64,000 nt of DNA from a virus (IMGVR_UViG_3300023174_000003:15792-79791); one strand, 5' to 3'; counted from the stretch's first letter, positions 21,046 to 39,872 are shown. Translations and numbers: made by a program. The notes: generated by a model not told the origin, from the sequence alone.

Positions 21046-21071
21046 AACAGTTTAACGTCTTGTTTAGGACG
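21046..21071 (-). ncRNA. leader pseudoknot family A, copy 1
   Basis: CGTC-CTAAACAA-GACG-TTAAAC-TGTT. Confidence 0.65.
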
Positions 21072-21081
21072 ATAAATACTT

Positions 21082-22017
21082 TTAAGTTGTTTTGTAAGAA
21101 AGTTGAGGAAGACTGGTGCCAGGGAATGGAACAAACCCTGCATTTAGCATAGCGTCAAACAGATCCCATGCATCATCTGCAGTGTAGTGTTCCTGTGGTT
21201 TGTACGTACGCCAGTGCGACATAGGTGCCATAGATCCCGACTTGGTATACAAGACAAGGAACCGACCCTTTGACTTATGGTCTTCTGGTGGAGCATACCA
21301 CCAAGCTGCAGCGTTATCAGGAGCAGACCCTCTGTACTGATCACGTACCTCAGAGCGTTTAACCAATAGCTCACGATACTTCTTGAACCAAGTTAAATGA
21401 ATGCACCACGGCTTATAGTCTTGGATCTCTTGCTGGAACTCAGACAGGTCTGTTAGCTGCCGCTGGAATGAACCACAAGAACAATAAGGTTCTTTGACTT
21501 TTTGTTGTGCAGTAACTTCTTCTAGATCAGAGTCCATATCTACTTCCTCATCAGGATCATAGAATCCTTCTGGTGCAATCAAGTGGCCAAGATCTGTATG
21601 CTCACTTTGCAACATAGCCTTAAGCTTGTCTTTACTCTTAAGGTAAATGAACTTATCAATCCATTCTCTTTGGAGTAACGCTTGACCAGTCTTGTGACTT
21701 AGCTGGTGTTGATAATGCCAACCTTTTAGCATTACGTAAGAGTTGTTATGCCAGATACCAGGACCTCTATAGTTAGGACCAAGGTATGCAAAGAAGTTTT
21801 TAAGACGACCAGTAAATTGTTGGTGTGCATTAATTACACTTTGCTTAGGCACTAATAGCTCAGTGCCATCTTGATGTACTACAACAATATTGTTATCACG
21901 TAGATAGATCCCACTTACAGTGGTCTCATCAAACTCTGGTAGTGCACGTCTAATATTGCTAATAGAATAGATTTGTTTTTGTGCAGAATTGAATTGGTCT
22001 TGAATTAGATTGTTCAT
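21082..22017 (-). CDS. SWIM-type Zn-finger protein
   Basis: YCSCGSF...PWCIH (CxC..CxH). Confidence 0.65.
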   Translation of the reverse strand: MNNLIQDQFNSAQKQIYSISNIRRALPEFDETTVSGIYLRDNNIVVVHQDGTELLVPKQSVINAHQQFTGRLKNFFAYLGPNYRGPGIWHNNSYVMLKGWHYQHQLSHKTGQALLQREWIDKFIYLKSKDKLKAMLQSEHTDLGHLIAPEGFYDPDEEVDMDSDLEEVTAQQKVKEPYCSCGSFQRQLTDLSEFQQEIQDYKPWCIHLTWFKKYRELLVKRSEVRDQYRGSAPDNAAAWWYAPPEDHKSKGRFLVLYTKSGSMAPMSHWRTYKPQEHYTADDAWDLFDAMLNAGFVPFPGTSLPQLSYKTT

Positions 22018-22038
22018 TGGTTAAAATTGAGTTGATGA

Positions 22039-22236
22039 TTAGATGAACAGGTCGTCCTGCTCTGCCGGAATCTTAGCAGAGCTAGGGGCAGAGTCGTAGG
22101 CCCTCTTACCAATTCTTAATAAACCATAGGCAAGCATCCCCCACGTAACAGGGTTAGCAAGTGATGCTGCAAGGAGTGTTCCCCCTACGGCATAGGGTGC
22201 CGTGTGTTTGATAGCAGCTTTTAGTTTTGTGTTCAT
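22039..22236 (-). CDS. small membrane-associated hypothetical protein
   Basis: Hydrophobic core. Confidence 0.5.
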   Translation of the reverse strand: MNTKLKAAIKHTAPYAVGGTLLAASLANPVTWGMLAYGLLRIGKRAYDSAPSSAKIPAEQDDLFI

Positions 22237-22268
22237 GGTGGTAGCATTGAGCAAAGTTGTTCAGGCTT

Positions 22269-22529
22269 ATGGAAATCAAAGTCATGCCCTTAAGTAAATT
22301 AGAACTTGACCCAGGGTTAGGTGATTTGTTCTGGAAAGAAAAAGTACAACGAGAGATTAACGAGAATACCTCAGTCAATGAACTAAGACAGTACGCATCT
22401 CTGTTGTTGTCTCTTGCAGTACAACGTCAAGGAATAATAAAAGGACTTGCAAAAGAATTGCTCACTATCAAACATCTATTGATAGATGATAGTGAGCTTG
22501 CCAATCCTGAGATTACACCAGAGGGTTAG
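22269..22529 (+). CDS. NblA-like (phycobilisome degradation) protein, tentative
   Basis: Two-helix pattern LGDLFWKEKVQREI..SVNELRQYASLLLSLAVQRQGIIKGL; lone plus-strand gene in the minus arm. Confidence 0.4.
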   Translation: MEIKVMPLSKLELDPGLGDLFWKEKVQREINENTSVNELRQYASLLLSLAVQRQGIIKGLAKELLTIKHLLIDDSELANPEITPEG

Positions 22530-23020
22530 ATGAGTGAATCATCTATTTTTAAATACTTATTACGATATAAAGAATTATGTATTTTTAAATATTTAGTTAC
22601 GGTATAAGTACAACAACCCATTTCAGCTGCAACATTAACACGAGATAAACCTTGAGATTTAAGTCTTAAAATTTTTTCTTGTTGTTCATTGGTTAATTTC
22701 CAAGGATGTTGACCAAGTTTTGCACGATTGCGGTCATGCATATCTTTAATATTATCTGTTTGAGTTCCAGGCAATAAATGCAATGGGTTGCAACAAGATC
22801 TATTATCACAAGTATGCCGAATAATAATCTTTGGAGTTAATGCAATATTATAATGATGCTCATAACTCCAGCGATGTGCAAGCATTGCTTTTTGGTTGCG
22901 TTTTGGATAACCATACCCATCTTTATGCCAGCGTTTACCTATGTACGGCCAACAAGAATTAAGACCCCCGAAGGGGTCAATCATTGCTAGCAAACTAATA
23001 GAGTTGTTTGCTATTGTCAT
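22526..23020 (-). CDS. free-standing HNH homing endonuclease with C-terminal HTH
   Basis: CWPY..GYG..AHRWSY..RHTCDNRSCCNPLHL..GTQTDNIKDM. Confidence 0.9.
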   Translation of the reverse strand: MTIANNSISLLAMIDPFGGLNSCWPYIGKRWHKDGYGYPKRNQKAMLAHRWSYEHHYNIALTPKIIIRHTCDNRSCCNPLHLLPGTQTDNIKDMHDRNRAKLGQHPWKLTNEQQEKILRLKSQGLSRVNVAAEMGCCTYTVTKYLKIHNSLYRNKYLKIDDSLI

Positions 23021-24090
23021 TAGATTAATCCATCATCCTCTCCAGTAACGGGATCCCTGGCACTAGGCAAAGCAGTTACATCAACTTCTTTGGTGTTACG
23101 TAGTTCAGGTAGTATCTCTACTCCCTCTCGTATTCCATAGGCACCACCAAGCTTTGCAGCATCCTGCTTAGCATGTTGATTGATATAGTCCTGGAACATT
23201 ACCTGGTACTTCCAAGTTGATTCCCGATCTTCATCAGGAATACTCATTGCATTTAATGATTCAACGGCGGCTTCTTGTGTGCTGTAATCAGGGATATCAA
23301 ACCCTTCAATAGCACATATCTCAACGTTATTAGCGCCGCGCATGTCATTAACAAGCTGAGGTGCAAATACTGTTGTTGCATAAAACTTCTCGTTAAACAT
23401 CAGTGGAATCTCAGAGTCAAGTGCCTTGCTCAAACACTTAGACATCTCCTTCTCATACAACTTAATCTTCTCGGCTGCATCAGTACCATTAAGTCCTTTT
23501 AAGGTAAGGACCATAGGTAGCTTATGTGCCCGTTGATTTTCTGTAGTAAGGATAAAGATTAAGTATTTGGTACGTACACTGTACTTACGTTTGTACATCT
23601 CGCCTTTACTGTTAGCAAGATCAGCAGCAACCTTGTCATTATCCCAGAGGGATTTGACTTGATCGTTGTCAAACGTACCAATTGTTTGCCTCATCCCTGT
23701 GGTTTCCTCAACCATGAGGGGAGAACGTAGAAGGACTTGAACTCTAGGCTGAGTGAAATTGAGTCCTTCTTCAATTGAAGTATTGGGAGCCATACCGAAA
23801 GTCTGCTTGTAGTTCCAGATAACAGAACCCTTAGCAAATTGATCTTCAGTTGCGCTCCATCCGCAAGTATCCAGGTCTGATATCCGCACGAACCAACCTC
23901 TTGTCTTAGATTTGTTGAGGGGTTGGATTGTGACGAAGTTCTGGTATCCTGAAACAAATTCTTTAGATTGAAATAACGCAAAAGATTCCAAGCCACGTGT
24001 TGCAATAGCAGAAGTTTTTTTCATAGCCATGGTCGAGGTTAGTTTCGTAGTAGGTGAGTTGGTCGTGGTGTCAAACAAAGTGCTAGTCAT
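23020..24090 (-). CDS. conserved cyanobacterial/phage protein (DUF5895-like), possibly ssDNA annealing
   Basis: Located next to SSB; PRVQVL.RSPL, YLIFIL..AHKLPMVLTLKG, FAPQL; start inferred from leader spacing. Confidence 0.55.
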   Translation of the reverse strand: MTSTLFDTTTNSPTTKLTSTMAMKKTSAIATRGLESFALFQSKEFVSGYQNFVTIQPLNKSKTRGWFVRISDLDTCGWSATEDQFAKGSVIWNYKQTFGMAPNTSIEEGLNFTQPRVQVLLRSPLMVEETTGMRQTIGTFDNDQVKSLWDNDKVAADLANSKGEMYKRKYSVRTKYLIFILTTENQRAHKLPMVLTLKGLNGTDAAEKIKLYEKEMSKCLSKALDSEIPLMFNEKFYATTVFAPQLVNDMRGANNVEICAIEGFDIPDYSTQEAAVESLNAMSIPDEDRESTWKYQVMFQDYINQHAKQDAAKLGGAYGIREGVEILPELRNTKEVDVTALPSARDPVTGEDDGLI

Positions 24091-24110
24091 TTGAGTAGCG
24101 AGGTTGGACA

Positions 24111-24139
24111 CAGGCAGTTTAGCGTCATGCCTGAGGACG
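24111..24139 (-). ncRNA. leader pseudoknot family A, copy 2
   Basis: CGTC-CTCAGGCAT-GACG-CTAAAC-TGCCTG. Confidence 0.65.
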
Positions 24140-24158
24140 GGCCAGCTATCTTAACAAT

Positions 24159-24959
24159 TCAGAAAGGTGCGTTGGCATCGTTGGAGTCAAAGCGCCCAGG
24201 TAGATCAGGCAAGTTGTTACCTACGTTCTGTCCCCAGGGCTCAGCAATTTCATCAGCAGTCTTACCACCCCATAGGCTTTGAGGTGCATCAGATGAGGTT
24301 GTGGTCTGTGCTTTGATACCACCAGAAGACTCTTGGACCTTGGGTGCTAGTGTCATTGATACCAACTGGATCTTGGTATTAGATTTACGTTCTTTAGTTT
24401 CTTTATCTAACCAAGAATCAGTAATCAATCTTCCCTGGATCGTAAGCCCAGTTCCTTTCCTTGTCATGTTTGCTAGTAGTTCAGCTTGATTAAATCTGTC
24501 AGTAGCTGAGTTAATAGCATAGAAGTTAAACAGGTCAGCTTGACCTTTACCAGTGCTAACAGATAGTGATTGATTAACAATCATTAAACCTTCTGCAGTT
24601 GTTCTGAATGAACGTTCATCTTCTTGGTTAATATCTTTTACACAGCGACCACTAAGGATAACTGTATTTAAGATAGGGAATGATTCATTAACAATAGCTA
24701 TTACGCCACCATGTAATGAGAATGTGCGTGACTCTAAATCATGACGTAGCTTTGCACCATGGATATAGATGTGTGATCCCTTAGGAGTCTTTAGAAAACG
24801 CTCTGAACTTTTACCGTAGACATTTAGTTCAATAGCCGTTGCCGACTTATTGCCTACTGGAGGTAGTAGTACAGGACAACGTACGGCTGTATTAGTAGCC
24901 GATATGTAAACCTCAGTTGGTTCTTGAGTTGTTTGTGCGCAAAGACTTGCAAAGTTCAT
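24159..24959 (-). CDS. ssb: single-stranded DNA-binding protein with tandem OB folds
   Basis: LNTVILSGR, RKGTGLTIQGRL.TDSWLDKET.ERKS; acidic tail ending NAPF; N-terminal half repeats the OB pattern. Confidence 0.8.
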   Translation of the reverse strand: MNFASLCAQTTQEPTEVYISATNTAVRCPVLLPPVGNKSATAIELNVYGKSSERFLKTPKGSHIYIHGAKLRHDLESRTFSLHGGVIAIVNESFPILNTVILSGRCVKDINQEDERSFRTTAEGLMIVNQSLSVSTGKGQADLFNFYAINSATDRFNQAELLANMTRKGTGLTIQGRLITDSWLDKETKERKSNTKIQLVSMTLAPKVQESSGGIKAQTTTSSDAPQSLWGGKTADEIAEPWGQNVGNNLPDLPGRFDSNDANAPF

Positions 24960-24980
24960 GGAATTAAAAAGAAAAGTGGA

Positions 24981-25007
24981 AGACAGTTTAACGTCATGCC
25001 TAGGACG
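24981..25007 (-). ncRNA. leader pseudoknot family A, copy 3
   Basis: CGTC-CTAGGCAT-GACG-TTAAAC-TGTCT. Confidence 0.65.
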
Positions 25008-25012
25008 GATCC

Positions 25013-27143: not shown

Positions 27144-27926
27144 TTATTTGCAACCAACTAGTTCCTTTACCTTCTTAACGGTATTATAACCAACAAACTT
27201 ACCTTGCTTCTTGCGTAGCTGTATCGCTTTGCTTGCATTAGAGCCAGCCCTCTGGGACCCATGGACCAATAGTGCAAAGGGCTTAGTGCCAAGGCAATGG
27301 CTATCATCATGGTCTATCTCTAGGCCTTGGGCCGCTGCCTCTTCCTCTGTGTACACAACGTATGCCCTACGGGTAAAGATATGTTCACGCCCTGGAATCA
27401 AGCTGTCAAGTTGACCGCCTATTGATGCAGTCAAGAAGAAGTTACTTGGTATGTTCTCAGCTTGGTTCAACCACATGTTAAGTGATTTAGTAAATGCATA
27501 GAAGGTTTTATTAAGACGTTGCCTTGCTACCTCCATCCATGCCATAAGATATTGCTCTGTCCAGAAGTCACCTGACTCATGGACTCTTACAAGATCCTCA
27601 TCATATGGATCAATAGAAGCCAAGATAAGTGCAGCCATATTATCTACGGCATGCTTTGAATCAGTATAGGCTGCATCACGTAATAGATCCCAGTTATACC
27701 AACGGGCATCACGTACGTTAGGCCTAGTCTCTGCCATAGCAGCAAAGCATCTGTACTCTGCAACGTCTTCAATTAGTGCAGCAAGACTATCATTGATCTT
27801 ACCTGTGTGCCGGTCAGCAAATGTTCTGCATACACCAGCGCCAGGACATGCATAGCCAGCAGGTAAACTAAAGATTAGTCTTTTGCTGAGCTTAGCATTA
27901 CCACGGGAAAACTTGAGAAGGTTCAT
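27144..27926 (-). CDS. phage Gp88-like protein
   Basis: GNAKL..FSLPAGYACPG..C..CFAA..RVHESGDF..FYAFTK. Confidence 0.75.
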   Translation of the reverse strand: MNLLKFSRGNAKLSKRLIFSLPAGYACPGAGVCRTFADRHTGKINDSLAALIEDVAEYRCFAAMAETRPNVRDARWYNWDLLRDAAYTDSKHAVDNMAALILASIDPYDEDLVRVHESGDFWTEQYLMAWMEVARQRLNKTFYAFTKSLNMWLNQAENIPSNFFLTASIGGQLDSLIPGREHIFTRRAYVVYTEEEAAAQGLEIDHDDSHCLGTKPFALLVHGSQRAGSNASKAIQLRKKQGKFVGYNTVKKVKELVGCK

Positions 27927-27950: not shown

Positions 27951-27976
27951 AGCAGTTTAACGTCATGCTTAGGACG
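27951..27976 (-). ncRNA. leader pseudoknot family A, copy 4
   Basis: CGTC-CTAAGCAT-GACG-TTAAAC-TGCT. Confidence 0.65.
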
Positions 27977-29917: not shown

Positions 29918-30095
29918 GGACGGTGGCCTCATATCCTTCAGCCATTAGCGATGCTGACAATGCCATTGCTAATTGCTTGGTGTACCGCTTTGTGCCGCCA
30001 GCGACCATATCGGTCACGGTCCAGCGTGTGTGGTTTGTCCAGACGACAATGCGCTCATTGCCTTTCTGAAAGAAGACTGATCGGGGCTTACTCAT
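29910..30095 (-). CDS. hypothetical protein (GC-rich module)
   Basis: MSKPRSVFF, start/stop overlapped with neighbours. Confidence 0.55.
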   Translation of the reverse strand: MSKPRSVFFQKGNERIVVWTNHTRWTVTDMVAGGTKRYTKQLAMALSASLMAEGYEATVHD

Positions 30096-30423
30096 TGGTG
30101 GTCTCGGGAATGGGTTGGTACTGTGGCAGCCATTGGCCGTGCTTGTCGGTAAAGCCAGCCTCATACAGGAACTGTTTAGCGGCGATGGCGTCACCGGCCA
30201 TAGCACGTTCCATCAGGGTTGGAGCGGTAATGGCGTCTGCCATGTCTTCAAGGGTGCTGGCTGGAACGGCATAGAACGATTCCATGTCGTCGTATTGGGC
30301 CTCGGTATCGGCTAGGTGGCGCAGAACAGCGGCAATGCCGTGATGAATGCTGTATCCCTCGTAAGAGCTGGCAGCTTGCTCAAACTCGTCAACTAGGCGT
30401 TGGGCGCGAGAGTCGCTAGTCAC
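30088..30423 (-). CDS. hypothetical protein (GC-rich module)
   Basis: 111 aa, coupled. Confidence 0.6.
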   Translation of the reverse strand: MTSDSRAQRLVDEFEQAASSYEGYSIHHGIAAVLRHLADTEAQYDDMESFYAVPASTLEDMADAITAPTLMERAMAGDAIAAKQFLYEAGFTDKHGQWLPQYQPIPETTNE

Positions 30424-30887
30424 GGGGCCTCGGGGATGTATAGGGCGTTGGCTGGTAGCCAGTGGGTGTAGTCATACATCTCAGCTCTTGTTCTAGTTCG
30501 GATGTAGATCCAACGCCACATCTGTCCATCGTTATCCCATAACCAACAGTAACCATCTTTGTTAACATCTTTTGGACCGGGCAATCTGCTGTCAAATGGA
30601 ATAGGAAAAAACTCATCCGTGGGCTCCACCGGATCCTCAGTCATGGCTGCTCCCCAGCGGAGATGATTGGTGATCTTGTTGCGACGTTTCTGCGTCTGCC
30701 AGACGAGCGTGAGGTAAGCGTTTATGACAGAAGCGGCAAGTAGGCGATCTTTCATGTCAAAGCAAGCATCTTTTGATGCGTACCTGAGAGCGTGCTCCAA
30801 GTCAATAAGTCTGTCTCCAGGGATGGGCCACGCTGTTCCGTCAAAGTGAACGAACGGGCTACCATCGGGAATGGTGATGTCAGTCAT
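30420..30887 (-). CDS. hypothetical protein; apparent fusion of two modules
   Basis: Internal MTEDPVEPTDE; C-terminal RLPGP.D..G.CW..THWLPANAL. Confidence 0.6.
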   Translation of the reverse strand: MTDITIPDGSPFVHFDGTAWPIPGDRLIDLEHALRYASKDACFDMKDRLLAASVINAYLTLVWQTQKRRNKITNHLRWGAAMTEDPVEPTDEFFPIPFDSRLPGPKDVNKDGYCWLWDNDGQMWRWIYIRTRTRAEMYDYTHWLPANALYIPEAP

Positions 30888-31411
30888 TAGATCTCCTCTC
30901 CAGTGTTGTTGGCAAGTGAACTATCTGGTTTGACCGGATAGTTGCCCCAGCGGGCAAGTACAGCGCGGGCGTAGTCGAGGGCGCCTGTGTTCAAGCTGAC
31001 ACGGAATATGCCAGGCTTGACTTGGCCGCCAGTTGCATCACTGCAGACTTTGGCTGCGTAGCTGAACTCATCCAGCATTGTTTCGGGCATTAGTTTTAGC
31101 AGCTCTTCATCAGTCGGCACCACCGGCTCGGGCAACTTGTAAGGCAAACTTACAGGTCGCTTGGCCAAGTTGTAACAACGGCGGCCAAAATCCACAAGAT
31201 CGCTGTCAAATGTGGGACCGTGGATTGACCAAGCCAATCGCAACAGCTCTTCATCAGTCGGCACCACCGGCTCGGGTTGGGCTAGGACAGCGCGGGCATC
31301 CTCGACGGACTGAAACAGCGCCTGTTCATGGTGGTCGGGCCACTTCCCGCCATGTTCTTCATACGCCTCCACCAGTCGCTGTAGTTCGGAGCGGTAGTCG
31401 GGGTTAGTCAT
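30887..31411 (-). CDS. hypothetical protein with duplicated PEPVVPTDEELL
   Basis: Exact 33-bp repeat at 31100-31132 and 31244-31276. Confidence 0.65.
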   Translation of the reverse strand: MTNPDYRSELQRLVEAYEEHGGKWPDHHEQALFQSVEDARAVLAQPEPVVPTDEELLRLAWSIHGPTFDSDLVDFGRRCYNLAKRPVSLPYKLPEPVVPTDEELLKLMPETMLDEFSYAAKVCSDATGGQVKPGIFRVSLNTGALDYARAVLARWGNYPVKPDSSLANNTGEEI

Positions 31412-31646
31412 TGAGGGCCTCCAGTGCGCGGCGGATGGTGTCCATTGCAGTGTCGTCCAAGTAAGGCTTGTTGCTGTTGACCAATGCCAGCGCCTGCTCC
31501 TTCAAACTCGGCGGCTCAGCCAGGGCGGCGCGGGCGCGGCACAAAAGAGGACCGCACTCTTGATAAGTCAGGGGTAGTGATTTAACTACTACTTTTGCCT
31601 CTAGCGTTGCGCAAAGCTCAGCGCACAGGGCGCGGAAGTCAGTCAT
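31404..31646 (-). CDS. hypothetical protein (GC-rich module)
   Basis: MTDFRALCAEL..SLKEQAL..DTIRRALEALND. Confidence 0.65.
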   Translation of the reverse strand: MTDFRALCAELCATLEAKVVVKSLPLTYQECGPLLCRARAALAEPPSLKEQALALVNSNKPYLDDTAMDTIRRALEALND

Positions 31647-31677
31647 TGAGGGCCTCCAGTGCGCGGCGGATGGTGTC
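31406..31677. repeat. 37-bp exact direct repeat (31406-31442 and 31641-31677)
   Basis: AGTCATTGAGGGCCTCCAGTGCGCGGCGGATGGTGTC, spanning gene junctions. Confidence 0.9.
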
Positions 31678-31995
31678 GTAGGTGGTGTCGTCAATCTTGT
31701 CTCTGTCGTAAGCATCAGCAAGCTCGTGAAGCGCCTGCTCCTTCAAGTTTGGCGGCTTGGGGCGGCGGGCGGCGCGGAGCCTGTCGGACGCCGGCTCATA
31801 ACCTGGGTGGTAGATGTGCTTGTCAATCCACTCACAACACGCCTCCAGCTCCTGGTCGGCACCCCATTGGGAAGCTTTAGTAATAGCTTCTCTAAATGTT
31901 TTTGAATTTAGGAGGTTGTGAGTAGGATCAGTCTTAAACTGATTCCAGATTGAATCCACCAGCTCAGGCGGTGGGGTGATTGGGTCGTTAGTCAT
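31639..31995 (-). CDS. hypothetical protein (GC-rich module)
   Basis: PITPPPELV..WGADQELEACCEW..LRAARRPKPP.LKEQAL..DTIRRALEALND. Confidence 0.65.
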   Translation of the reverse strand: MTNDPITPPPELVDSIWNQFKTDPTHNLLNSKTFREAITKASQWGADQELEACCEWIDKHIYHPGYEPASDRLRAARRPKPPNLKEQALHELADAYDRDKIDDTTYDTIRRALEALND

Positions 31996-32026
31996 TAGAT
32001 TTATTTGATTTGAGTAAGGTGGATAA

Positions 32027-33220: not shown

Positions 33221-34924
33221 TCAGTTAGATACTAGGTCCTTCTCACGGATCTGTAAAGCTTCTTGGAATATACCTTGATATTTCTCACGTTCTATAGATG
33301 TCAATGATCTGTTACTTGGTCCTGCAATCTGTTCTACATGCATGGTGCCATTGGATACCTTGAGTTGTATTGTGAATACAGGCTTGTTGTCAACCATACA
33401 TAAGACAATGAATTGTTTCTTAGCTTTTATAAGATTGGCATATGTTGATGATGCACCTACACAATTACGTACTGCTTGCCCCCATTGTGCAAGCTGATGA
33501 GTATCTATGGGTTGAATGAATGTCCAGATCTCATCAGCAAGTTTTACTTTGACAGGAACAGGGAATAAATCCTGTGGTAGTTTTTGGTTTGGGTTACTTA
33601 TCTTCCAGGCTTCTGCTTGTACATGATCATGGAACTCAGTGTAACGCCAACGCCTAGGCGGAGTAAGTTCTTTACCTGCAGCTAATACATTATTAATCAT
33701 GTCCATTGTATCTCTAAATAAATAGAATGTAAGCATATAACAATTCAGTTGATTATCTTTATGCCTATTACTTGGCTTTTCATCTTCTATATATTTGTTT
33801 AGCATATTAAATAATGATGCCACTGGTAGGTTGGTTGCTAGCCATTTCTTTGCTAACGAATCAGTTTTATAATAAGCGATTGAATGGATACGGCCAATAG
33901 ATAAAAACATATTGGTTTGTATTCCAGTCTGTAAATAATCCATAGGGCAGTCAGGATATATATCAAGGATATCTAGAATCCAAGCCAAAGTATGTATAAG
34001 TTTTTTGTGTATAGAACTAATTTCTTTCTTGGACTTAGTGGCTGGATCATTGAACGTATTAATAATTAATTGACATTGCTCATTGATGTAACGTTTAAAC
34101 CATGGCTTACCAAGTTTCTCTTGCATAACAGTAAATGATCTATCTAAATTTTGGGTATACCGTAGCCTTAGTATTTCTATATACAATTCAAAGCTAGGCA
34201 CAATGTTTTGATTCTTTGGTATTGATGTATGATGTAATTCTAATAGTTCATGGTAATTATTTTTAGCCGTATCTATTCTGTCCCATACACCACCATCAGT
34301 ATAAGTAGGTATTGAATTTATAATGGCTTCTCTGAATGGTTGTATTACACTTGGTCTTATCTCTTTACCTTTTGTATTGTATCCTTTGAAGTTACCATGT
34401 TCCCAATAGTGTGATTGACATCCATTAGATATATCTTCTGCTGTTACAAACTTTGTATAGACATTGAACTCTATGCGTCCATACTTTTTGATAGTAGTAT
34501 CTTTTCTATTTATGTCTCTAATGTATACCTGTTTGCATGTAGTTTCTGTATTCTTAAATGCATAAGTAAACCCATAGATATAATCTTCACCTGGGTTAGG
34601 TAACCATGCTGCAATCCACAAGGATTCGTAGTGGTACACAACAGCTTTAAGTTTTGTTGTGGCTACCATATCTTTATCATATGTAACACGACTAAAAGTA
34701 TGATAGCGATATGGAACTTCTTCTTGGTTAATAGCAATTATTGCTGCAAGTAAATTGCTAGGCATAACAATGTGTGCAGGGATAATATCATTAGGCAAGC
34801 CAAGATGAAAGCGTGGTTTCTTAGGCTTGCTTACAGGAGTAGTAGCAGCTTTAGCCAAAGCTTTTAACTTTGGATCATAAGCTAATAGTTCTGTGCGCAG
34901 GTTGGCGGGTAGTTGGAATTGCAT
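33221..34924 (-). CDS. PcfJ-like domain protein
   Basis: C-terminal EFHDHV..QPIDTHQLAQWGQAVRNCVG..Y..FTIQL..QIAGPSN. Confidence 0.75.
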   Translation of the reverse strand: MQFQLPANLRTELLAYDPKLKALAKAATTPVSKPKKPRFHLGLPNDIIPAHIVMPSNLLAAIIAINQEEVPYRYHTFSRVTYDKDMVATTKLKAVVYHYESLWIAAWLPNPGEDYIYGFTYAFKNTETTCKQVYIRDINRKDTTIKKYGRIEFNVYTKFVTAEDISNGCQSHYWEHGNFKGYNTKGKEIRPSVIQPFREAIINSIPTYTDGGVWDRIDTAKNNYHELLELHHTSIPKNQNIVPSFELYIEILRLRYTQNLDRSFTVMQEKLGKPWFKRYINEQCQLIINTFNDPATKSKKEISSIHKKLIHTLAWILDILDIYPDCPMDYLQTGIQTNMFLSIGRIHSIAYYKTDSLAKKWLATNLPVASLFNMLNKYIEDEKPSNRHKDNQLNCYMLTFYLFRDTMDMINNVLAAGKELTPPRRWRYTEFHDHVQAEAWKISNPNQKLPQDLFPVPVKVKLADEIWTFIQPIDTHQLAQWGQAVRNCVGASSTYANLIKAKKQFIVLCMVDNKPVFTIQLKVSNGTMHVEQIAGPSNRSLTSIEREKYQGIFQEALQIREKDLVSN

Positions 34925-34947
34925 GTGAGTGAATAATGAGTGGGATG

Positions 34948-34976
34948 CAGGCAGTTTAACGTCATGCCTGAGGACG
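34948..34976 (-). ncRNA. leader pseudoknot family A, copy 5
   Basis: CGTC-CTCAGGCAT-GACG-TTAAAC-TGCCTG. Confidence 0.65.
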
Positions 34977-34981
34977 TGGAC

Positions 34982-35429: not shown

Positions 35430-35431
35430 GA

Positions 35432-35644
35432 TCAGACCTCCTGTAGTTGTTGTGTAGCCACAGCCACTGGCTGCTGAAACGCAGAGCCAGGACCATAGCG
35501 TTGGACTAGATCTGGGAATGCACCTAGGATACGTTGACGGTTAGTGGGATCAGCATACCGTAGTGCGTTGGCCATAGTACTGACGAACTTGCCGCCGTAC
35601 TTGGTCATGGTCTCGGTCATGTGATAAATCTCAGTGCTGGTCAT
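35432..35644 (-). CDS. hypothetical protein
   Basis: MTSTEIY..YGGKFV..ADPTNRQRILGAFP; start follows the leader. Confidence 0.65.
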   Translation of the reverse strand: MTSTEIYHMTETMTKYGGKFVSTMANALRYADPTNRQRILGAFPDLVQRYGPGSAFQQPVAVATQQLQEV

Positions 35645-35694
35645 GAGTTGAGTTGCGGTGGGACACAGGCAGTTTAACGTCATGCCTGAGGACG
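35640..35694 (-). repeat. 55-bp exact repeat (leader pseudoknot A copy 6 + spacer + ATG)
   Basis: Identical to 37026-37080. Confidence 0.9.
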
Positions 35695-35705
35695 GGTCAG
35701 CTTAG

Positions 35706-35942
35706 TTACAGAATCTTTATGTTGCGTTTGCTTAGGCCAGTACCAGGCAATCCAATGGATGCATGGACGCCTGACTCACGAGCATTCAGTGTGAGTTGCA
35801 ATGGACCTAACTGGAATGATTTAGAGAATGACTTGATGCCATTCTCCGTAATGTTGATACCATTCCAAGTCTTGTCAAAGTTGAACAATGATTTCTTGTG
35901 AGCCATCTTAGATACCTTCAATGCATGGGTGGATGTTGTCAT
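35706..35942 (-). CDS. DUF4236-like small basic protein (likely start 35906)
   Basis: KSFQLGPLQLTLN..SGVHASIGLPGTGLS. Confidence 0.55.
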   Translation of the reverse strand: MTTSTHALKVSKMAHKKSLFNFDKTWNGINITENGIKSFSKSFQLGPLQLTLNARESGVHASIGLPGTGLSKRNIKIL

Positions 35943-36111
35943 CGTTCATATTTGTCATGGTAAATTTTTCACCAGTGACAGGATCAATGAAGCCTCCAAC
36001 GAATCCGATCCCATTACGGTCAGCGGATTCTTTCATTAGTGCCACAAACCTCATCGCTTCAAGACGACGTAAGCTTGTGGCATCAGGCACAGTCAGATCA
36101 GAGTTAGACAT
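35908..36111 (-). CDS. hypothetical protein
   Basis: 67-aa ORF. Confidence 0.55.
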   Translation of the reverse strand: MSNSDLTVPDATSLRRLEAMRFVALMKESADRNGIGFVGGFIDPVTGEKFTMTNMNDDNIHPCIEGI

Positions 36112-36143
36112 TGGATGGGGAAGTTAAGGTTTGATTAATGAAC

Positions 36144-36452
36144 TTAGGATTTTACTAGATTCTGTTTGACATCCATACTAAATATCATGTCAGCATCAGT
36201 GGGATCTTCATATCCTGTAACATCGATAGGATCAATGTCAGGAAAGCAGACCGGCTGGTCGAATTCAACATTGACTAGTACCGTCAGATGTTCCTTGGAC
36301 AGGCTTACCCAATCTTCAGTCAACCAATTGATGGCATGTTGCTTGTTCACCAGATATACGGTGCGATCATGCCATACGTCATCGTTCTTGATCTTGTAAT
36401 CAATGATGGCACCGAAGTGTGTACCACCGATAGGCAGTGGGGCATTAGTCAT
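36144..36452 (-). CDS. hypothetical protein
   Basis: 102-aa acidic ORF. Confidence 0.55.
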   Translation of the reverse strand: MTNAPLPIGGTHFGAIIDYKIKNDDVWHDRTVYLVNKQHAINWLTEDWVSLSKEHLTVLVNVEFDQPVCFPDIDPIDVTGYEDPTDADMIFSMDVKQNLVKS

Positions 36453-36488
36453 TAGCTTTCGTGGTGATGGTGGACAGGGGTGAGGGGA

Positions 36489-36788
36489 CTATGCGAATGG
36501 CGTAAAGCCTGGTGCATCTATCAACTCTTGTAGTGTGCATACAGCATCTGCTGCTAGCTCACTGAACACAACCTTGTTATCAGTGACATATTCATTTGAC
36601 TGATCCTCTACTACTTCACATCCGCTATCTTCTAGCTCATCGCAGAACTCATCCCATGTCATGTGCTTGCCATAGACATGAGCGTATCTGCCCGTGGCAT
36701 CTGCCACTAATGCAACATAGTGATTCATTGTACTCATTTCAGGGGTGGTTGTACTCATTACTTGTGTAGCTCCTGGTGTTGTTGCCAA
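36489..36788 (-). CDS. acidic hypothetical protein
   Basis: ORF in the early arm; start uncertain. Confidence 0.55.
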   Translation of the reverse strand: MATTPGATQVMSTTTPEMSTMNHYVALVADATGRYAHVYGKHMTWDEFCDELEDSGCEVVEDQSNEYVTDNKVVFSELAADAVCTLQELIDAPGFTPFA

Positions 36789-37030
36789 TGGGCAGCATGA
36801 ATCTCTGCTGCTGTAACAGCGGACTCACCTCCGGTGTTGTCATAGAGATACTCAGGTGTTGGGTCATAGCCCGTCACCTCTTCTAATGCATCGATGCAGT
36901 CTGAGATAGTATCCAGCATCCACTGTGGTGCAGAATACATTTGGTCTTTGGCTTCCTCTTGTTTGAGGACAGCGTTCATCTTTTTGATCCAGCGTTCGCA
37001 TGCGCACTCTGGAGTCTTGTCTAAAGTCAT
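36758..37030 (-). CDS. hypothetical protein
   Basis: MTLDKTPEC..; start follows the leader. Confidence 0.6.
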   Translation of the reverse strand: MTLDKTPECACERWIKKMNAVLKQEEAKDQMYSAPQWMLDTISDCIDALEEVTGYDPTPEYLYDNTGGESAVTAAEIHAAHWQQHQELHK

Positions 37031-37080
37031 GAGTTGAGTTGCGGTGGGACACAGGCAGTTTAACGTCATGCCTGAGGACG
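37026..37080 (-). repeat. 55-bp exact repeat (leader pseudoknot A copy 7 + spacer + ATG)
   Basis: Identical to 35640-35694. Confidence 0.9.
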
Positions 37081-37153
37081 AGCTATTAGGTTTCAGTATT
37101 TTGTGGCATTTCAACATTTGTTGAAAGCCTATAGTAGTACTGATGTATTACCG

Positions 37154-37507
37154 TTAGATCATTCCTAAGAGTGACAGCCAGCTATCAGGGTGATCTGGTT
37201 CCACCTCATCGTAGGTAGGTGTCAGGCAAATGGAATCAAACGTCCATTCCTCTATGTCTTCCATTGTTGGCACCTCGTACCAACCAATGAGATCATCTTG
37301 TTCATCTTTGTAGTTACGTCCTTTGGGTATCCAATAGTACATGAGTACTCCCTTCTTATTCTTACGGACAGCACCGTTATACGGCAGCTGACCTTTCAGT
37401 GGATCCTGGAAGCAGCACTCGACAGGATATTGTTCCTGTCCATCTGCTTCTGTCAATGGCTCGTAGCCTAGTGCTGTGGCCATCTGTTGCTGTTCAGGTA
37501 ATAGCAT
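37154..37507 (-). CDS. hypothetical protein
   Basis: C-terminal EEWTFDSICLTP..VEPDHPDSWLSLLGMI. Confidence 0.65.
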   Translation of the reverse strand: MLLPEQQQMATALGYEPLTEADGQEQYPVECCFQDPLKGQLPYNGAVRKNKKGVLMYYWIPKGRNYKDEQDDLIGWYEVPTMEDIEEWTFDSICLTPTYDEVEPDHPDSWLSLLGMI

Positions 37508-37528
37508 GGTGTGAATGCGATTGGATGT

Positions 37529-37555
37529 CTGCGTTGTAAGGATGCGCAGCCCCCT
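37529..37555 (-). promoter_or_regulatory. leader element family D, copy 1
   Basis: AGGGGG-CTGCG-CATCCTTACAA-CGCAG. Confidence 0.6.
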
Positions 37556-37562
37556 GTTAATC

Positions 37563-37904
37563 TTATTTAAGTTGTTGTTTTCTGGTACGTGTACGTGGTA
37601 CCTTTGCTGGTGTAGCTACCGGCTCTGGTACATCTGCAACGTACTCTAGATTCCAGTTAGCAATAGTATCTATTGCATTAATAAACTTGCCACAATACTG
37701 TGTAAAGCTTATAACAAATTCTTCGCCGTGGTCAGCTTGCCACTGACGATAGGTCTTGATGCTCCACTGGACCACAGCAATGATTACTGCTGTGATAGTT
37801 ACCAGTGTCATAACAATGTTGTAGGCGACACGTCGCCAATTAACTTTCTGTATCTGTGTCAGTGCATCATCCACTGGTGGAAAGCTGTAGGTCATGTTAG
37901 TCAT
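37563..37904 (-). CDS. membrane-anchored hypothetical protein
   Basis: One transmembrane segment; likely start MTNMTYSF. Confidence 0.55.
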   Translation of the reverse strand: MTNMTYSFPPVDDALTQIQKVNWRRVAYNIVMTLVTITAVIIAVVQWSIKTYRQWQADHGEEFVISFTQYCGKFINAIDTIANWNLEYVADVPEPVATPAKVPRTRTRKQQLK

Positions 37905-38133
37905 GGTGAATCTCCTGTGGGTGTGATTGTAGTTGTGTGATGTCAATACCTGCGGCTGCCATTACGACAGTTGCAATAATAAATGTCATCAACACAAAGG
38001 TTGTGGCATCTAATACTTTGCCGAGCATTTTTGAGCTCAATACTTTTCTAAGCATTTTTAAGTGCATGATAGATTTGCGTTGGTACGAATCAAGTTCAAC
38101 GTAACGGCCTACAATTTTATGGTAGTTCTTCAT
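37897..38133 (-). CDS. hypothetical protein with C-terminal transmembrane segment
   Basis: Coupled ORF. Confidence 0.5.
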   Translation of the reverse strand: MKNYHKIVGRYVELDSYQRKSIMHLKMLRKVLSSKMLGKVLDATTFVLMTFIIATVVMAAAGIDITQLQSHPQEIHHD

Positions 38134-38327
38134 TACATTCCATATAGTATGTCACTGTCTTCGTCCTCGTTAATAAGCTCAAATTGAGACCACAAACGAT
38201 AAGTTTCTATAGTGTTTGCAATGCCGTGGGTGTGGCTTGCATATTTTCGTGCTTCATTTATATCGTTAAAACATGTATCAATGTTCTTGTCAACAGGGTG
38301 ATACACAATGTGAACGTAGTTAGCCAT
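38133..38327 (-). CDS. hypothetical protein
   Basis: Follows a family D leader. Confidence 0.55.
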   Translation of the reverse strand: MANYVHIVYHPVDKNIDTCFNDINEARKYASHTHGIANTIETYRLWSQFELINEDEDSDILYGM

Positions 38328-38354
38328 TAGATTCTCCGTTGTAGTTGTGAATGC

Positions 38355-38381
38355 CTGCGTTGTTAGGATGCGCAGCCCCCT
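38355..38381 (-). promoter_or_regulatory. leader element family D, copy 2
   Basis: AGGGGG-CTGCG-CATCCTAACAA-CGCAG. Confidence 0.6.
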
Positions 38382-38397
38382 CGTGTTAGATTAACTT

Positions 38398-38703
38398 GGG
38401 GTGAAGAAGAACCGTGTCAGCCCCTTCATACAAGGGAACCAGGATTTTTACGGTCTCTCCTGGTTGGTAACAGACGAGCTGTGCCACTGATCATGGGGCA
38501 GCTCCTCCCTTATCTTAATTCTTGCAGACATGTATAGGGTCAGGACGCAATAGTCCTTCAGCTCGTGCGGCGGGCGCCCTATGCCTGCTACAACTTTAGG
38601 TTCATCACGCCTAAAGAAGTTTGTTGGAACTCTTCTGAGTTCCTAGACGAGTCAACTCCTGGCCAGGAGGGTCAGCTGAACCCTCCAAAGCATAGCAGGT
38701 TTA
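38398..38703. ncRNA. candidate ~300-nt multi-domain structured RNA
   Basis: No ORF of 60 aa or more in the track; about nine stems, two multiloops and two possible loop-mediated pseudoknots. Confidence 0.6.
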
Positions 38704-38704
38704 A

Positions 38705-38959
38705 CTAATCTTCGATGCCATACTCCTGCTCATATTTAAGCAAGAGTGCGTTTCGGTCAACACACTTCTTGAGGAATTGTGCCAATGGATGCAAAGCATC
38801 CCACTCTAATGCACCGTCTTGCCACTGGAAGTACATCTCCAGTAGCTCGGTACGTTTCTGTTCAATAGACCAATCAACACAAGGGTGTTGAACAGTCGAG
38901 TCTCGCCTGGCAAGCAGACGTGCATCTTTTATGATGCGTTCAACCGTAGCACTGGTCAT
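38705..38959 (-). CDS. hypothetical protein
   Basis: MTSATVERIIKDARLLARRD; start follows a family B leader. Confidence 0.6.
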   Translation of the reverse strand: MTSATVERIIKDARLLARRDSTVQHPCVDWSIEQKRTELLEMYFQWQDGALEWDALHPLAQFLKKCVDRNALLLKYEQEYGIED

Positions 38960-38963
38960 GATT

Positions 38964-39040
38964 GTGAGTAAGCCACACTCAGTGTGTGGCAATAACTGGA
39001 CCAGGGTTTGCACCTGGTCACCCGCTTTAACGGATCAGCT
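38964..39040 (-). ncRNA. tRNA-like T-loop + pseudoknot element family B, copy 1
   Basis: AGCTG-ATCCGTTAAAGCGGGT-GACCAGG-TGCAAAC-CCTGGTC-CAGTT, then ATTGCCACACACTGAGTGTGGCTTACTCA. Confidence 0.6.
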
Positions 39041-39196
39041 TGCTTGACGCATCTCCACTAATAGCTCAACCAGTATCTGGTTGTAACTTTTACTAGATTC
39101 TTTGGAGTGATATTCTGCTATCACTTGTGCATCATCTAACTCTTTGTTGCTGAAGGTGCCCATAAACTTGAACAGTTGTTCGTAAGTAAGTGTCAT
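39035..39196 (-). CDS. 53-aa hypothetical protein
   Basis: MTLTYEQLFKFMGTFSNKELDDAQ..; bounded by family B elements. Confidence 0.55.
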   Translation of the reverse strand: MTLTYEQLFKFMGTFSNKELDDAQVIAEYHSKESSKSYNQILVELLVEMRQAS

Positions 39197-39205
39197 TAAA
39201 TTGAT

Positions 39206-39286
39206 GCTGTGCAGGTGCCCATCTCCTGCGGACTAGGCAATACTGAGTAGGGGATTCGATCCCCCGGCATCACGCCTGGTACTCAG
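39206..39286 (-). ncRNA. tRNA-like T-loop + pseudoknot element family B, copy 2
   Basis: CTGAGTA-CCA-GGCGTGATGCC-GGGGG-ATCGAAT-CCCC-TACTCAG, then TATTGCCTAGTCCGCAGGAGATGGGCACCTGC. Confidence 0.6.
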
Positions 39287-39453
39287 AACGGAATCTCATC
39301 AAACGACTCCACACATGAATCAGTAGCTGGATCATCAATGACCCAGCCTTCTTCCTCTGCTTCTGCTTCTAACACCCATTGAGGTGTGTTATTTGCTAAC
39401 CAGATATCATGAAGGAGTTGTTCTTGATGAATGTTGCTAGGTTGAATACGCAT
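39283..39453 (-). CDS. 56-aa acidic protein ending in SSB-tail-like FDEIPF
   Basis: MRIQPSNIHQEQLLHDIWLANNTPQWVLEAEAEEEGWVIDDPATDSCVESFDEIPF*. Confidence 0.6.
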   Translation of the reverse strand: MRIQPSNIHQEQLLHDIWLANNTPQWVLEAEAEEEGWVIDDPATDSCVESFDEIPF

Positions 39454-39463
39454 TTAACTGTGA

Positions 39464-39545
39464 GCTGTGCAGGTGCCCATCTCCTGCGGACTAGGCAATG
39501 ACTGTGGGAGGGTTTGCACCTCCCAACCCGCTTTAACGGATCAGC
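39464..39545 (-). ncRNA. tRNA-like T-loop + pseudoknot element family B, copy 3
   Basis: GCTG-ATCCGTTAAAGCGGGT-TGGGAGG-TGCAAAC-CCTCCCA-CAGT, then CATTGCCTAGTCCGCAGGAGATGGGCACCTGC. Confidence 0.6.
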
Positions 39546-39768
39546 AACCAAGCATCTCGTCCACGTAGGACTTGATGACTTGGAGTTGGTCTCGGTTAAG
39601 TGTCTGGCTACGGCCATACTCCAAAAGGTCAAGGACCTGGAGCATGACGCTTTCGCCAGCCTCTTCACGAGACGGTACGCCACACATGTCGAAGATCTCA
39701 TTACGAGACATCTCAGTGATGTCAACGCAATCGATCTTACGAACGGTGGCGATGGTGGTCTTAGTCAC
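39541..39768 (-). CDS. hypothetical protein
   Basis: 75 aa, GTG start, between family C and B elements. Confidence 0.6.
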   Translation of the reverse strand: MTKTTIATVRKIDCVDITEMSRNEIFDMCGVPSREEAGESVMLQVLDLLEYGRSQTLNRDQLQVIKSYVDEMLGC

Positions 39769-39788
39769 GGTGTTACTCCGTAGGTGAG

Positions 39789-39822
39789 CTTGGACTTACA
39801 CTGCTGAAGTGCAGCTGCCAAG
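39789..39822 (-). ncRNA. leader hairpin family C, copy 3
   Basis: CTTGG-CA-GCTGC/GCAGT-GTAAGT-CCAAG. Confidence 0.5.
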
Positions 39823-39847
39823 ATCGTGACTGACCACCGAGTTGTCT

Positions 39848-39872
39848 GCTGCGTTTAACGTCCAGCTCGACG
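39848..39872 (-). ncRNA. leader pseudoknot family A, divergent copy 8
   Basis: CGTC-GAGCTG-GACG-TTAAACG-CAGC. Confidence 0.5.

Follow-up and report, generated by a model that had tools for sequence, protein, structure and literature searches.

A small intercistronic pseudoknot repeated among the early genes of a cyanophage shares its core with coremin RNA

The window, a stretch of 64,000 nt (IMGVR_UViG_3300023174_000003:15792-79791), comes from an S-EIV1-like cyanophage. As shown in Table 1, eight copies of a pseudoknot of 25-29 bases lie between early genes of this phage, all on the minus strand. The pattern CGTC-N5-10-GACG-YTAAAC gave eight matches on the reverse strand of the 79,791-bp virus record and 0 on its forward strand, and the reversed control pattern gave 0 matches in the same record. 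The eight positions reported in the initial annotation were confirmed and correspond to the 3′ ends of stem 2.

Table 1. Pseudoknot copies in the window and the genes that follow them (positions counted from the first letter of the window).
Feature	Position	Strand	Description
Copy 1	39848..39872	-	Found by pattern scan; 6-nt loop GAGCUG; stem 2 GCUG/CAGC begins one base later; in 5′ leader, 79 nt upstream of GTG 39768
Gene after copy 1	39541..39768	-	75 aa; GTG start, GGAG 9 nt upstream
Copy 2	37052..37080	-	32.5 bits; stem 1 37080-37077/37067-37064, L3 37063-37058, stem 2 3′ strand 37057-37052; 21-nt leader, ATG 37030
Gene after copy 2	36758..37030	-	90 aa, function unknown
Copy 3	35666..35694	-	33.5 bits; 21-nt leader, ATG 35644
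Gene after copy 3	35432..35644	-	70 aa, function unknown
Copy 4	34948..34976	-	34.6 bits; 5 nt past upstream stop; 23-nt leader, ATG 34924
Gene after copy 4	33221..34924	-	PcfJ-like protein, 567 aa (MQFQLP...)
Copy 5	27951..27976	-	44.8 bits; stem 2 AGCA/UGCU; 24-nt leader, ATG 27926
Gene after copy 5	27144..27926	-	GP88-family protein, 260 aa
Copy 6	24981..25007	-	45.9 bits; stem 2 AGGCA/UGUCU, one G-U; 5 nt past DNA polymerase stop; 21-nt leader, ATG 24959 (ssb)
Gene after copy 6	24159..24959	-	Single-strand DNA-binding protein (ssb)
Copy 7	24111..24139	-	28 bits; linker CUAAAC; 20-nt leader, ATG 24090
Gene after copy 7	23020..24090	-	DUF5895 protein, 356 aa
Copy 8	21046..21071	-	43.3 bits; stem 2 AACA/UGUU; 21-nt leader, ATG 21024
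Gene after copy 8	20911..21024	-	Hydrophobic peptide, 37 aa

Every copy contains stem 1 CGUC/GACG, a loop of 6-9 nt (6, 8 or 9 nt), the linker YUAAAC (UUAAAC in seven copies, CUAAAC in one) and a stem 2 of 4-6 bp between loop and 3′ tail. The invariant stem, the linker and the loop-tail pairing of the initial annotation were found in all copies, and the covarying pairings that it listed were reproduced. Stem 2 is CAGGCA/UGCCUG in four copies and AGGCA/UGUCU, AGCA/UGCU, AACA/UGUU and GCUG/CAGC in one each; both stems pair in 8/8 copies, with five compensating stem-2 variants. Copies 2 (37080) and 3 (35694) are identical from knot through leader to ATG, so the number of independent stem-2 variants in the window is five rather than eight. 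U19 follows the linker in 7/8 copies. Nearest-neighbour energies of the proposed stems, taken separately, were small (+1.1 to -6.8 kcal/mol).

The covariance-model search suggested earlier was run with a model of 91 instances, of which the window contributed three. It found seven window copies at 28-46 bits (E ≤ 8.5e-5) and detected the eighth, the 6-nt-loop variant of copy 1, just partially; with filters off, no further matches beyond the eight copies were obtained in the 64 kb. The same variant occurs in five other contigs (L018, L045, L055, L078 and L097). The Rfam search that had also been proposed placed no characterised family on the knots. Across the whole window, a group I intron was the sole Rfam 15 family at gathering score, which preQ1, pistol and other small-pseudoknot families did not reach, and at E ≤ 10 six of the eight copies had no match. 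The initial annotation could not match the element to a known family. A match does exist, in the literature and not in Rfam, where canonical coremin has no family. Coremin, or xrRNA-C, is present in BNYVV RNA3/5, cucumoviruses and other RNA viruses (Dilweg, Gultyaev & Olsthoorn 2019, PMC6546385; Dilweg et al. 2023, PMC10520033). Its stem 1 (C1-G12 to C4-G9) and linker (U13-U19) in BNYVV are identical to those of the phage knot (PMC6546385).

The true start of ssb is the ATG at 24959, not a TTG further upstream. The isolate Synechococcus phage S-EIV1 carries seven knot copies at corresponding genes (ssb, GP88, PcfJ-like). At these three sites the knot is kept in S-EIV1 and in related contigs while stem 2 differs; PcfJ-like orthologues in 20 related contigs retain a knot, with different stem-2 sequences. 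Related phages encode MFE... peptides at the position of the 37-aa peptide after copy 8.

The motif is widespread among unrelated phages, forming a large family whose members come from phage contigs, from prophages and from named phages, and no report of its occurrence in phages was found in the searchable literature. Its core was found in phages of cyanobacteria, Firmicutes, actinobacteria and alphaproteobacteria, and in an archaeal genome. With stem 2 in fixed register, 215 instances gave 1051 Watson-Crick, 140 G-U and 5 A-C cells. The large excess of G-U over A-C indicates that stem 2 forms in the sense-strand RNA. A stem 2 of at least 6 bp was present in 143 of 274 family instances, against 9 when the tail was taken from 40 nt downstream as a control. 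The alignment of 91 sequences contained 102 cells changed on both sides versus 32 in shuffles (0/500 shuffles reached 102), and slid stem-2 registers fell to 21-48% paired. Stem 1 covaries too among relatives, at pairs 1 and 3 (UGUC/GACA, AGUC/GACU, GGAC/GUCC and CGAC/GUCG). An A-U19 pair was found in 7/8 window copies and 215/215 selected family instances, and stem-2 pairs 2-4 had zero unpaired cells in the selected sets. Stem 1 and the linker were nearly invariant in the 91-sequence alignment whereas stem 2 varied freely; UUAAAC and U19 were invariant there, but these bases had been fixed by the search pattern itself.

In S. aureus phage records the homologous site carries the annotation of a promoter predicted by BPROM, and TAAACT resembles a -10 hexamer, as would be expected of a DNA element such as a promoter, operator or recombination site. 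However, in copy 1 the hexamer ends in G rather than T, and sigma-70-like matches fell on no knot copy and were not above chance in the region. The G-U to A-C ratio of 140:5 reveals strand-specific pairing, and a palindromic protein site could not consist of two covarying helices that interleave. We therefore give a DNA element next to no credence. The earlier preference for RNA structure over a DNA operator was borne out by the same ratio, by co-orientation with the genes and by the register relative to stop and start codons.

Knots in the window begin at least 5 nt past the upstream stop and, in seven copies including those before ssb and the gp88-like gene, are followed by a G-poor spacer of 20-24 nt and an ATG, as had been noted; the eighth lies before a GTG. 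Within the family, the stop-to-knot gap shows a sharp edge at 5 nt (40/148), with 6/148 below 4 nt, and in cyanophage-like contigs the distance from knot to ATG has its peak at 20-22 nt. Gaps of 5 nt and 20-22 nt are approximately the reach of a terminating and an initiating ribosome. The knot fills the ribosome-free gap between cistrons, a placement in keeping with a fold that persists.

The seven leaders contain 7 G in 151 nt (0-2 G each) and lack a Shine-Dalgarno sequence. The link to such starts implied in the initial annotation is weak: most genes of this phage have no Shine-Dalgarno sequence, and knot-less early genes show equally C/A-rich leaders without one. Its absence characterises the phage in general rather than the knot. 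An aid to initiation on such leaders, recruiting or positioning the 30S subunit or S1 or keeping the landing pad single-stranded, would suit their low G content and the constant spacing, both in 7/7 copies and at the cyanophage-like peak. The spacing can equally be explained, however, by a compact genome leaving just enough room for the knot to clear the initiation footprint, and the same leader type occurs without a knot. In other hosts the knot is followed by an ordinary Shine-Dalgarno site, at a distance that varies, or by a terminator, a ribozyme or nothing. This function is quite unlikely in our judgement.

The position relative to the stop codon could also reflect a roadblock to ribosomes, which would stop stop-codon readthrough or scanning by post-termination 70S ribosomes and uncouple the cistrons. 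From what is known of frameshift spacers, a knot 5 nt past the stop codon stands at the mRNA entrance of a ribosome whose A site holds that codon. No slippery sequence is conserved upstream, since positions -12 to -1 carry the stop-codon signal only, and adjacent genes show no consistent relation of reading frame. In vitro, coremin halts scanning ribosomes and promotes frameshifting (PMC10520033; PMC10321173), but the papers cited used no bacterial ribosomes. We regard a ribosome roadblock as very unlikely.

Outside cyanophage-like contexts the upstream stop is more tightly spaced to the knot than the next start: the 5-nt peak persists in all contexts while the distance to the start becomes broad. 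An upstream ORF with no nearby downstream ORF was found for 36/193 instances. In the Firmicutes contig L182, cleavage by a type III hammerhead falls a few bases beyond the 3′ end of the knot and leaves the knot on the upstream fragment, and in L079 and L139 an intrinsic terminator lies directly 3′ of it. These arrangements, and the presence of knots in hosts where RNase J was not found, would agree with a 3′-end cap or general insulator of the upstream cistron that sits as near to the stop codon as a terminating ribosome permits, blocks 3′-5′ exonucleases after downstream cleavage and could also keep upstream translation from disturbing a following fold (RBS, ribozyme, terminator or tRNA). Yet 45/193 instances have a downstream ORF only, copy 1 lies in a 5′ leader, and the characterised relatives block 5′-3′ movement. 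The gene order also favours protection of the downstream gene: the knot separates DNA polymerase from ssb in the window and minor-head from scaffold/capsid genes in S. aureus phages, and in both cases lies upstream of the product needed in larger amount. A 3′ cap is therefore unlikely.

The near-invariant stem 1 and linker next to a free stem 2 recall ligand-binding cores, and in architecture the knot is similar to preQ1-I riboswitches and to the operator of T4 gene 32. A translational operator or riboswitch is nevertheless highly improbable. No Rfam riboswitch matched, and no shared phage protein is apparent because the same core spans cyanobacteria, Firmicutes, actinobacteria, alphaproteobacteria and an archaeal genome. 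Coremin, moreover, works without protein or ligand (PMC6546385; PMC10321173). Among the three functions first suggested, the riboswitch is unlikely because eight copies precede unrelated genes in hosts ranging from cyanobacteria to Firmicutes and an archaeon, and the 5′-exonuclease block is best supported because the core equals that of the Xrn1-resistant coremin RNA.

We thus favour, with about equal weight for and against, the reading of the knot as a permanently folded roadblock to 5′-3′ decay that would shield the downstream message. Each copy is an H-type pseudoknot of the sense-strand early mRNA and consists of a 4-bp stem 1, an L1 of 1-2 nt (C or CU), a 4-6-bp stem 2 joining the hairpin loop to the bases that follow the linker, one unpaired junction base and the A-rich linker UUAAAC, which must cross the minor groove of stem 1. 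It would be a phage variant of the coremin-type exoribonuclease-resistant RNA, self-folding and mechanically tough. Terminating and initiating ribosomes need not melt it because it sits exactly in the ribosome-free intercistronic gap. On the polycistronic early transcript it would stop 5′-3′ travellers, namely the exonuclease RNase J and possibly 5′-end-dependent RNase E, and a cistron lying downstream, such as ssb, GP88 or PcfJ-like, would outlive the upstream one. What the analysis shows is the fold, the family, the placement and the resemblance to coremin, whereas nuclease resistance and the direction of protection are inferred.

RNase J was detected above the curated cut-off in 28/36 knot-bearing genomes versus 3/10 chance-pattern genomes (Fisher p = 0.008), an association confounded by phylogeny and based on a small control of 10 genomes. 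Both cyanobacterial genomes among the knot carriers encode RNase J. It was not found in two Bacteroidota, a Calditrichia and a deltaproteobacterial MAG, and one Vibrio phage lineage that carry knots. These carriers count against the proposed roadblock, as do the missing second hairpin, the non-coremin loops, the small stem energies, the L182 hammerhead and the tighter tie to the upstream stop outside cyanophage-like contexts.

To our knowledge, exoribonuclease-resistant RNAs are known solely from eukaryotic RNA viruses. It is possible, though short of probable, that the knot is a natural exoribonuclease-resistant RNA of prokaryotic viruses, its protein-free core common with eukaryotic RNA viruses by descent or convergence. 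DNA phages that infect bacteria, and perhaps archaea, would then use it where cistrons meet to divide long messages into segments, each with its own lifetime. If so, a 27-nt version, many per DNA phage genome, would counter bacterial 5′-3′ decay in the same way and would account for differential expression within phage operons. Natural stem-2 variants, numbering in the hundreds, provide covariation evidence for the still unsolved coremin fold, and synthetic operons would gain a very small stabiliser or insulator part. Isolated systems are available: S-EIV1 on Synechococcus, and S. aureus phages 80, phiETA and phiNM4 together with RNase J mutants.

Coremin, which stalls Xrn1 in vitro one nucleotide ahead of its hairpin, is the nearest known system. 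Its 5′ hairpin, 3-4 bp of (C)GUC/GAC(G) in which pairing matters over sequence, is found as CGUC/GACG in 8/8 copies, and its linker UUAAAC followed by U19 is also present in phage knots. In both RNAs the stem is swappable if pairing is kept, the A-run of the linker is conserved, and the loop begins with a pyrimidine and has A as its last base but one. The coremin loop rule, YGAD (4 nt) or YGNNAD (6 nt), fails in the eight copies: phage loops agree at the first base (C) and the last but one (A), and their final base is U, A or C, never G. The linker end A20-C21, essential in BNYVV, is absent, and these positions belong to the variable 3′ strand of stem 2. The second hairpin (hp2), small and stable and placed immediately 3′ of the linker in coremin, is absent from the seven leaders, which are G-poor and unstructured and so cannot form one; copy 1 alone has a long imperfect hairpin 3′ of it. 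Coremin has no obvious Watson-Crick stem 2, an obligatory second hairpin and a location mostly in 3′ UTRs of eukaryotic RNA viruses, whereas the phage knot has a 6-9-nt loop, a 4-6-bp stem 2 and no second hairpin and is intercistronic in DNA phages. The tetraloop form of coremin was found in our scan almost exclusively in short RNA-virus-like contigs.

The xrRNA-WCC, a Watson-Crick form of coremin that stem 2 resembles, shares with the phage knot a canonical antiparallel pseudoknot between loop and post-linker bases, including A-U19. Its pairs A7-U19 and G6-C20 give Xrn1 resistance, as proven by compensatory mutants, and a single natural example, a picorna-like virus, is cited (PMC10321173). 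It differs in its 4-nt loop and in its 3-bp stem 2 that includes C18; in the phage knots C18 is unpaired and stem 2 starts at U19. Both xrRNA-WCC and coremin require hp2 for Xrn1 resistance (PMC10321173). Luteovirus-type -1 frameshift pseudoknots (BWYV, PLRV) are likewise small and H-type with a short stem 1 and an A-rich minor-groove loop, but lie within overlapping ORFs 5-8 nt past a slippery heptamer, whereas phage knots follow stop codons; they failed to resist Xrn1 (PMC10321173). Bacterial RNase J1 is halted in vitro by a flaviviral xrRNA that acts as a general mechanical obstacle (PMC5760640). Flavivirus and dianthovirus xrRNAs halt 5′-3′ exonucleases without protein, the job proposed for the phage knot, but have larger, unrelated ring-like folds with no sequence likeness to it. 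Bacterial and chloroplast 5′ stabilisers include 5′ stem-loops and ribosome-binding stabilisers in Bacillus and PPR-protein caps at chloroplast intercistronic ends. They resemble the knot in its proposed role, since they too form a barrier where a cistron begins, defining a processed mRNA and protecting it from RNase J; they are simple hairpins, bound ribosomes or proteins, whereas the phage element is a conserved pseudoknot.

One design was common to the eight sites read on the minus strand: CGUC, a loop of 6-9 nt, GACG, a linker (UUAAAC, once CUAAAC) and a tail which at all eight reverse-complements the 3′ portion of the loop. We refer to this H-type pseudoknot as the knot. Across the 79,791-bp record the pattern was matched eight times on the reverse strand and not once on the forward strand or in a reversed control, in agreement with the eight copies of the initial annotation, whose coordinates mark where stem 2 ends on its 3′ side. 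The loop/tail pairing had been described as covarying, and five distinct stem-2 sequences, each compensated, were indeed present in the window. The copies starting at 37080 and 35694 have their entire cassette in common and are a duplication.

Positions of the knots and of other features in the window and in other sequences bearing a knot or hairpin
Feature	Position	Strand	Remarks
Knot copy 1	39848-39872	-	variant, 6-nt loop
Knot copy 2	37052-37080	-	
Knot copy 3	35666-35694	-	
Knot copy 4	34948-34976	-	before PcfJ-like gene
Knot copy 5	27951-27976	-	before GP88
Knot copy 6	24981-25007	-	between DNA polymerase and ssb
Knot copy 7	24111-24139	-	
Knot copy 8	21046-21071	-	
Leader after copy 1	39769-39847	-	79 nt; long imperfect hairpin over GGAG before GTG 39768; includes GUAAGU; -22.3 kcal/mol, z-score only -1.3
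Sites of ORF calls extended too far upstream	35683, 37117, 25067, 24111	-	
Likely true gene starts	35644, 37030, 24959, 24090	-	
GC island	30000-32000		55% against ~40% elsewhere; within early arm
Terminator-like bidirectional hairpin	40503-40520		T runs on both strands; after ORF 40547-40759; in divergent region separating early and late arms
Large terminase subunit with intein	51612-54161	+	Intein_splicing and Terminase_6C
307-aa ORF	52234-53157		overlaps large terminase gene in other frame
186-aa ORF	58410-58970	-	opposite strand to group I intron, immediately upstream of it
Group I intron	58983-59226	+	Rfam, 88.7 bits; between ORFs 57772-58296 and 59297-60385
L079, three tandem knots	4619-4800	+	within 180 nt; two followed by terminator-like hairpin and U run
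L182, knots with hammerhead	e.g. 3071-3158, 2089-2176	-	Rfam type III, above threshold at two of four knots
L207 (S. aureus phage B166), knot	1503-1528		stem CGAC/GUCG
L139, coremin-like hairpin	4115		
L153 (Selenomonadaceae MAG), coremin-like hairpin	671		

Of the 91 instances used to build a covariance model, three came from the window. The model recovered seven copies at 28-46 bits, but the variant with the 6-nt loop only partly, and with filters off it gave no further match in the 64 kb beyond the knots. The linker measures 6 nt and L1 is either C or CU, stem 2 begins at the base directly after UUAAAC, and the single base between stem 2 and stem 1 is U, A or C, never G. The knot is a stereochemically ordinary H-type fold, with a 6-nt A-rich strand over the minor groove of a 4-bp stem. 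Taken separately, the stems are weak by nearest-neighbour energies; therefore any toughness must derive from stacking and tertiary contacts.

In IMG/VR an 18-base pattern was present in at least 115 contigs, many among the matches listed carrying 2-7 copies each, and 82 stretches of species-representative genomes matched it too, most with the stem-2 complement. Under a looser expression, counting all instances, stem 2 reached at least 6 bp in 143 of 274, against 9 with a control tail 40 nt downstream; this unselected count is the fair test of stem 2. In the 91-row alignment, where the percentage paired is inflated because rows were chosen for a stem 2 of at least 5 bp, sliding the register lowered the paired fraction to 21-48%. 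Changes on both sides of a pair occupied 102 cells of that alignment against 32 in shuffles, and none of 500 shuffles scored as high. Fixed-register stem-2 cells were Watson-Crick in 1051 cases, G-U in 140 and A-C in 5. The excess of G-U over A-C indicates that the pairing is that of sense-strand RNA, not of duplex DNA or antisense RNA. Stem 1 covaries as well (GGAC/GUCC, AGAC/GUCU, and CGAC/GUCG in S. aureus phages). At orthologous junctions of related cyanophage contigs the knot is kept while stem 2 differs; 20 PcfJ-like sites held six distinct stem-2 helices.

The window belongs to a tailed phage, as judged by DNA polymerase A, primase-helicase, SSB, GP88, an intein-bearing terminase and a virion protein. 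When 5 kb was compared with named phages by megablast, nothing matched; kinship was recovered by protein search only, the nearest named relative being the arctic-lake Synechococcus phage S-EIV1 (65% polymerase identity). The leftward early/replication arm holds all eight knots. In S-EIV1 this arm carries seven, and ssb, GP88 and the PcfJ-like gene are among the genes preceded by one; the first pair of stem 1 covaries there (U-A, A-U, G-C) and the linker varies slightly. Two fish-gut metatranscriptome runs contained, as contigs only, a relative at 90-99%, one contig running across copy 8 and another across copy 6, each with both flanks. These contigs are uninformative on processing because 5′ ends and strand are absent and the library may hold DNA.

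Family-wide, stem 1 seldom begins closer than 5 nt to the upstream stop codon, the distribution having a sharp edge there (exactly 5 in 40 of 148, below 4 in only six), and two window copies lie exactly 5 nt past a stop codon. Across the family, the spacing between stem 2 and the following ATG peaks at 20-22 nt. The fixed distance to the start proposed initially was borne out at seven window copies (21, 21, 23, 24, 21, 20 and 21 nt). The stop-knot and knot-ATG distances correspond roughly to the stretches occupied by terminating and initiating ribosomes, respectively. Given these footprints, the knot would fill the sole ribosome-free stretch and need never be melted. Coremin RNAs of plant viruses also stop scanning ribosomes (PMC10520033); for the knot, a block to ribosomes is a weaker explanation. 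At four genes the mechanically called ORFs begin too far upstream, in or before the knot, because of an AUG inside the loop (CAUGACG) and nearby in-frame GTG/TTG codons. No copy carried a sigma-70-like match, and such matches were not above chance, so a promoter was rejected. Readthrough fusion of adjacent genes was also rejected, since the frames fit at copy 4 and not at copy 6.

An aid to initiation might be read from the constant spacing and from the leaders after the knots, which are G-poor and have no Shine-Dalgarno sequence. The absence of Shine-Dalgarno noted at first holds for these leaders, but most other genes of this phage, knotless early genes included, likewise have G-poor leaders without it; the knot is therefore no Shine-Dalgarno substitute. 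This explanation too is weaker.

The best reading, to which we give about an even chance, is a permanently folded roadblock to 5′-3′ decay. In the knot's relatives the fold itself, without any protein, mechanically blocks 5′-3′ movement (PMC6546385, PMC10321173, PMC10520033), and bacterial RNase J1 is stopped by an unrelated xrRNA (PMC5760640). By analogy, the knot would halt 5′-3′ movement and protect a downstream message needed more abundantly. Its placement after the polymerase gene and before ssb in the window, and before scaffold/capsid genes in S. aureus phages, fits such protection. Knot-bearing cyanobacterial genomes encode RNase J; overall it is encoded in 28 of 36 knot genomes against 3 of 10 chance-match genomes, a tally no more than suggestive, since phylogeny confounds it. 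Restriction of the knot to RNase J hosts was rejected, as the association is enriched, not exclusive. Several findings speak against an exclusive RNase J role: some knot-bearing genomes yielded no RNase J, and a Vibrio phage also has the knot; in one contig a hammerhead ribozyme cuts immediately 3′ of it; elsewhere terminators come directly after it; and in contexts other than cyanophages its position is tied more closely to the preceding stop codon than to the following start. For these same reasons a 3′ cap or general insulator stays a serious rival to the roadblock.

On the Firmicutes bacterium CAG:95 contig (L182), a hammerhead-like core lies within a few bases after each of four knots, ribozyme stem III beginning where stem 2 ends. 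The homologous knot of phage B166 lies 8 nt past the minor-head stop codon and ~60 nt before the scaffold gene. The same site is found in phages 80, phiETA, phiNM4, 96, 29, 55 and 88, and several records label it a BPROM-predicted promoter. Isolated phages with the knot are suitable test systems.

The knot had not been matched to a known family, and Rfam supplied no match either: for the knot a gathering scan of the window returned no family, and around six of the eight copies none appeared at E<=10. The single weak match, U6atac, was put down to chance. The pistol ribozyme was considered for the common hairpin and UUAAA and rejected, as the knot has no P2/P3 and no Rfam match. Rfam has no model for coremin, the Xrn1-resistant RNA of plant viruses, which was reached by text search with a 10-base core. 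No report of the motif in phages or bacteria was found in the literature searched, no solved coremin structure was found, and the two Dilweg 2023 coremin papers (PMC10520033, PMC10321173) never mention phage or bacteria.

On viral contig L095 (minus strand), 8 nt past the knot, a hairpin with the 6-nt loop CGAAAU and linker UUAAACUAU has the coremin YGNNAD form. Sequences L139 and L153 share a hairpin GGUC-CGAA-GACC with linker UUAAACUGC, followed 14 nt downstream by a G+C-rich hairpin; here a bacterial assembly contains the coremin tetraloop form exactly.

The hairpin stem and the linker through U19 (coremin numbering) are letter-identical in coremin and the phage knot. In a Watson-Crick coremin variant, loop-tail pairs are proven at the same positions, and this variant resists Xrn1 and stimulates frameshifting (PMC10321173). 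In contrast to the phage knot, the coremin loop follows a fixed consensus and is 4 or 6 nt long, the linker end A20-C21 is fixed, and a second hairpin is required. The tetraloop form is almost confined to short RNA-virus-like contigs. With these three features missing and this distribution, we class the phage knot as a variant of the coremin kind and not as a member.
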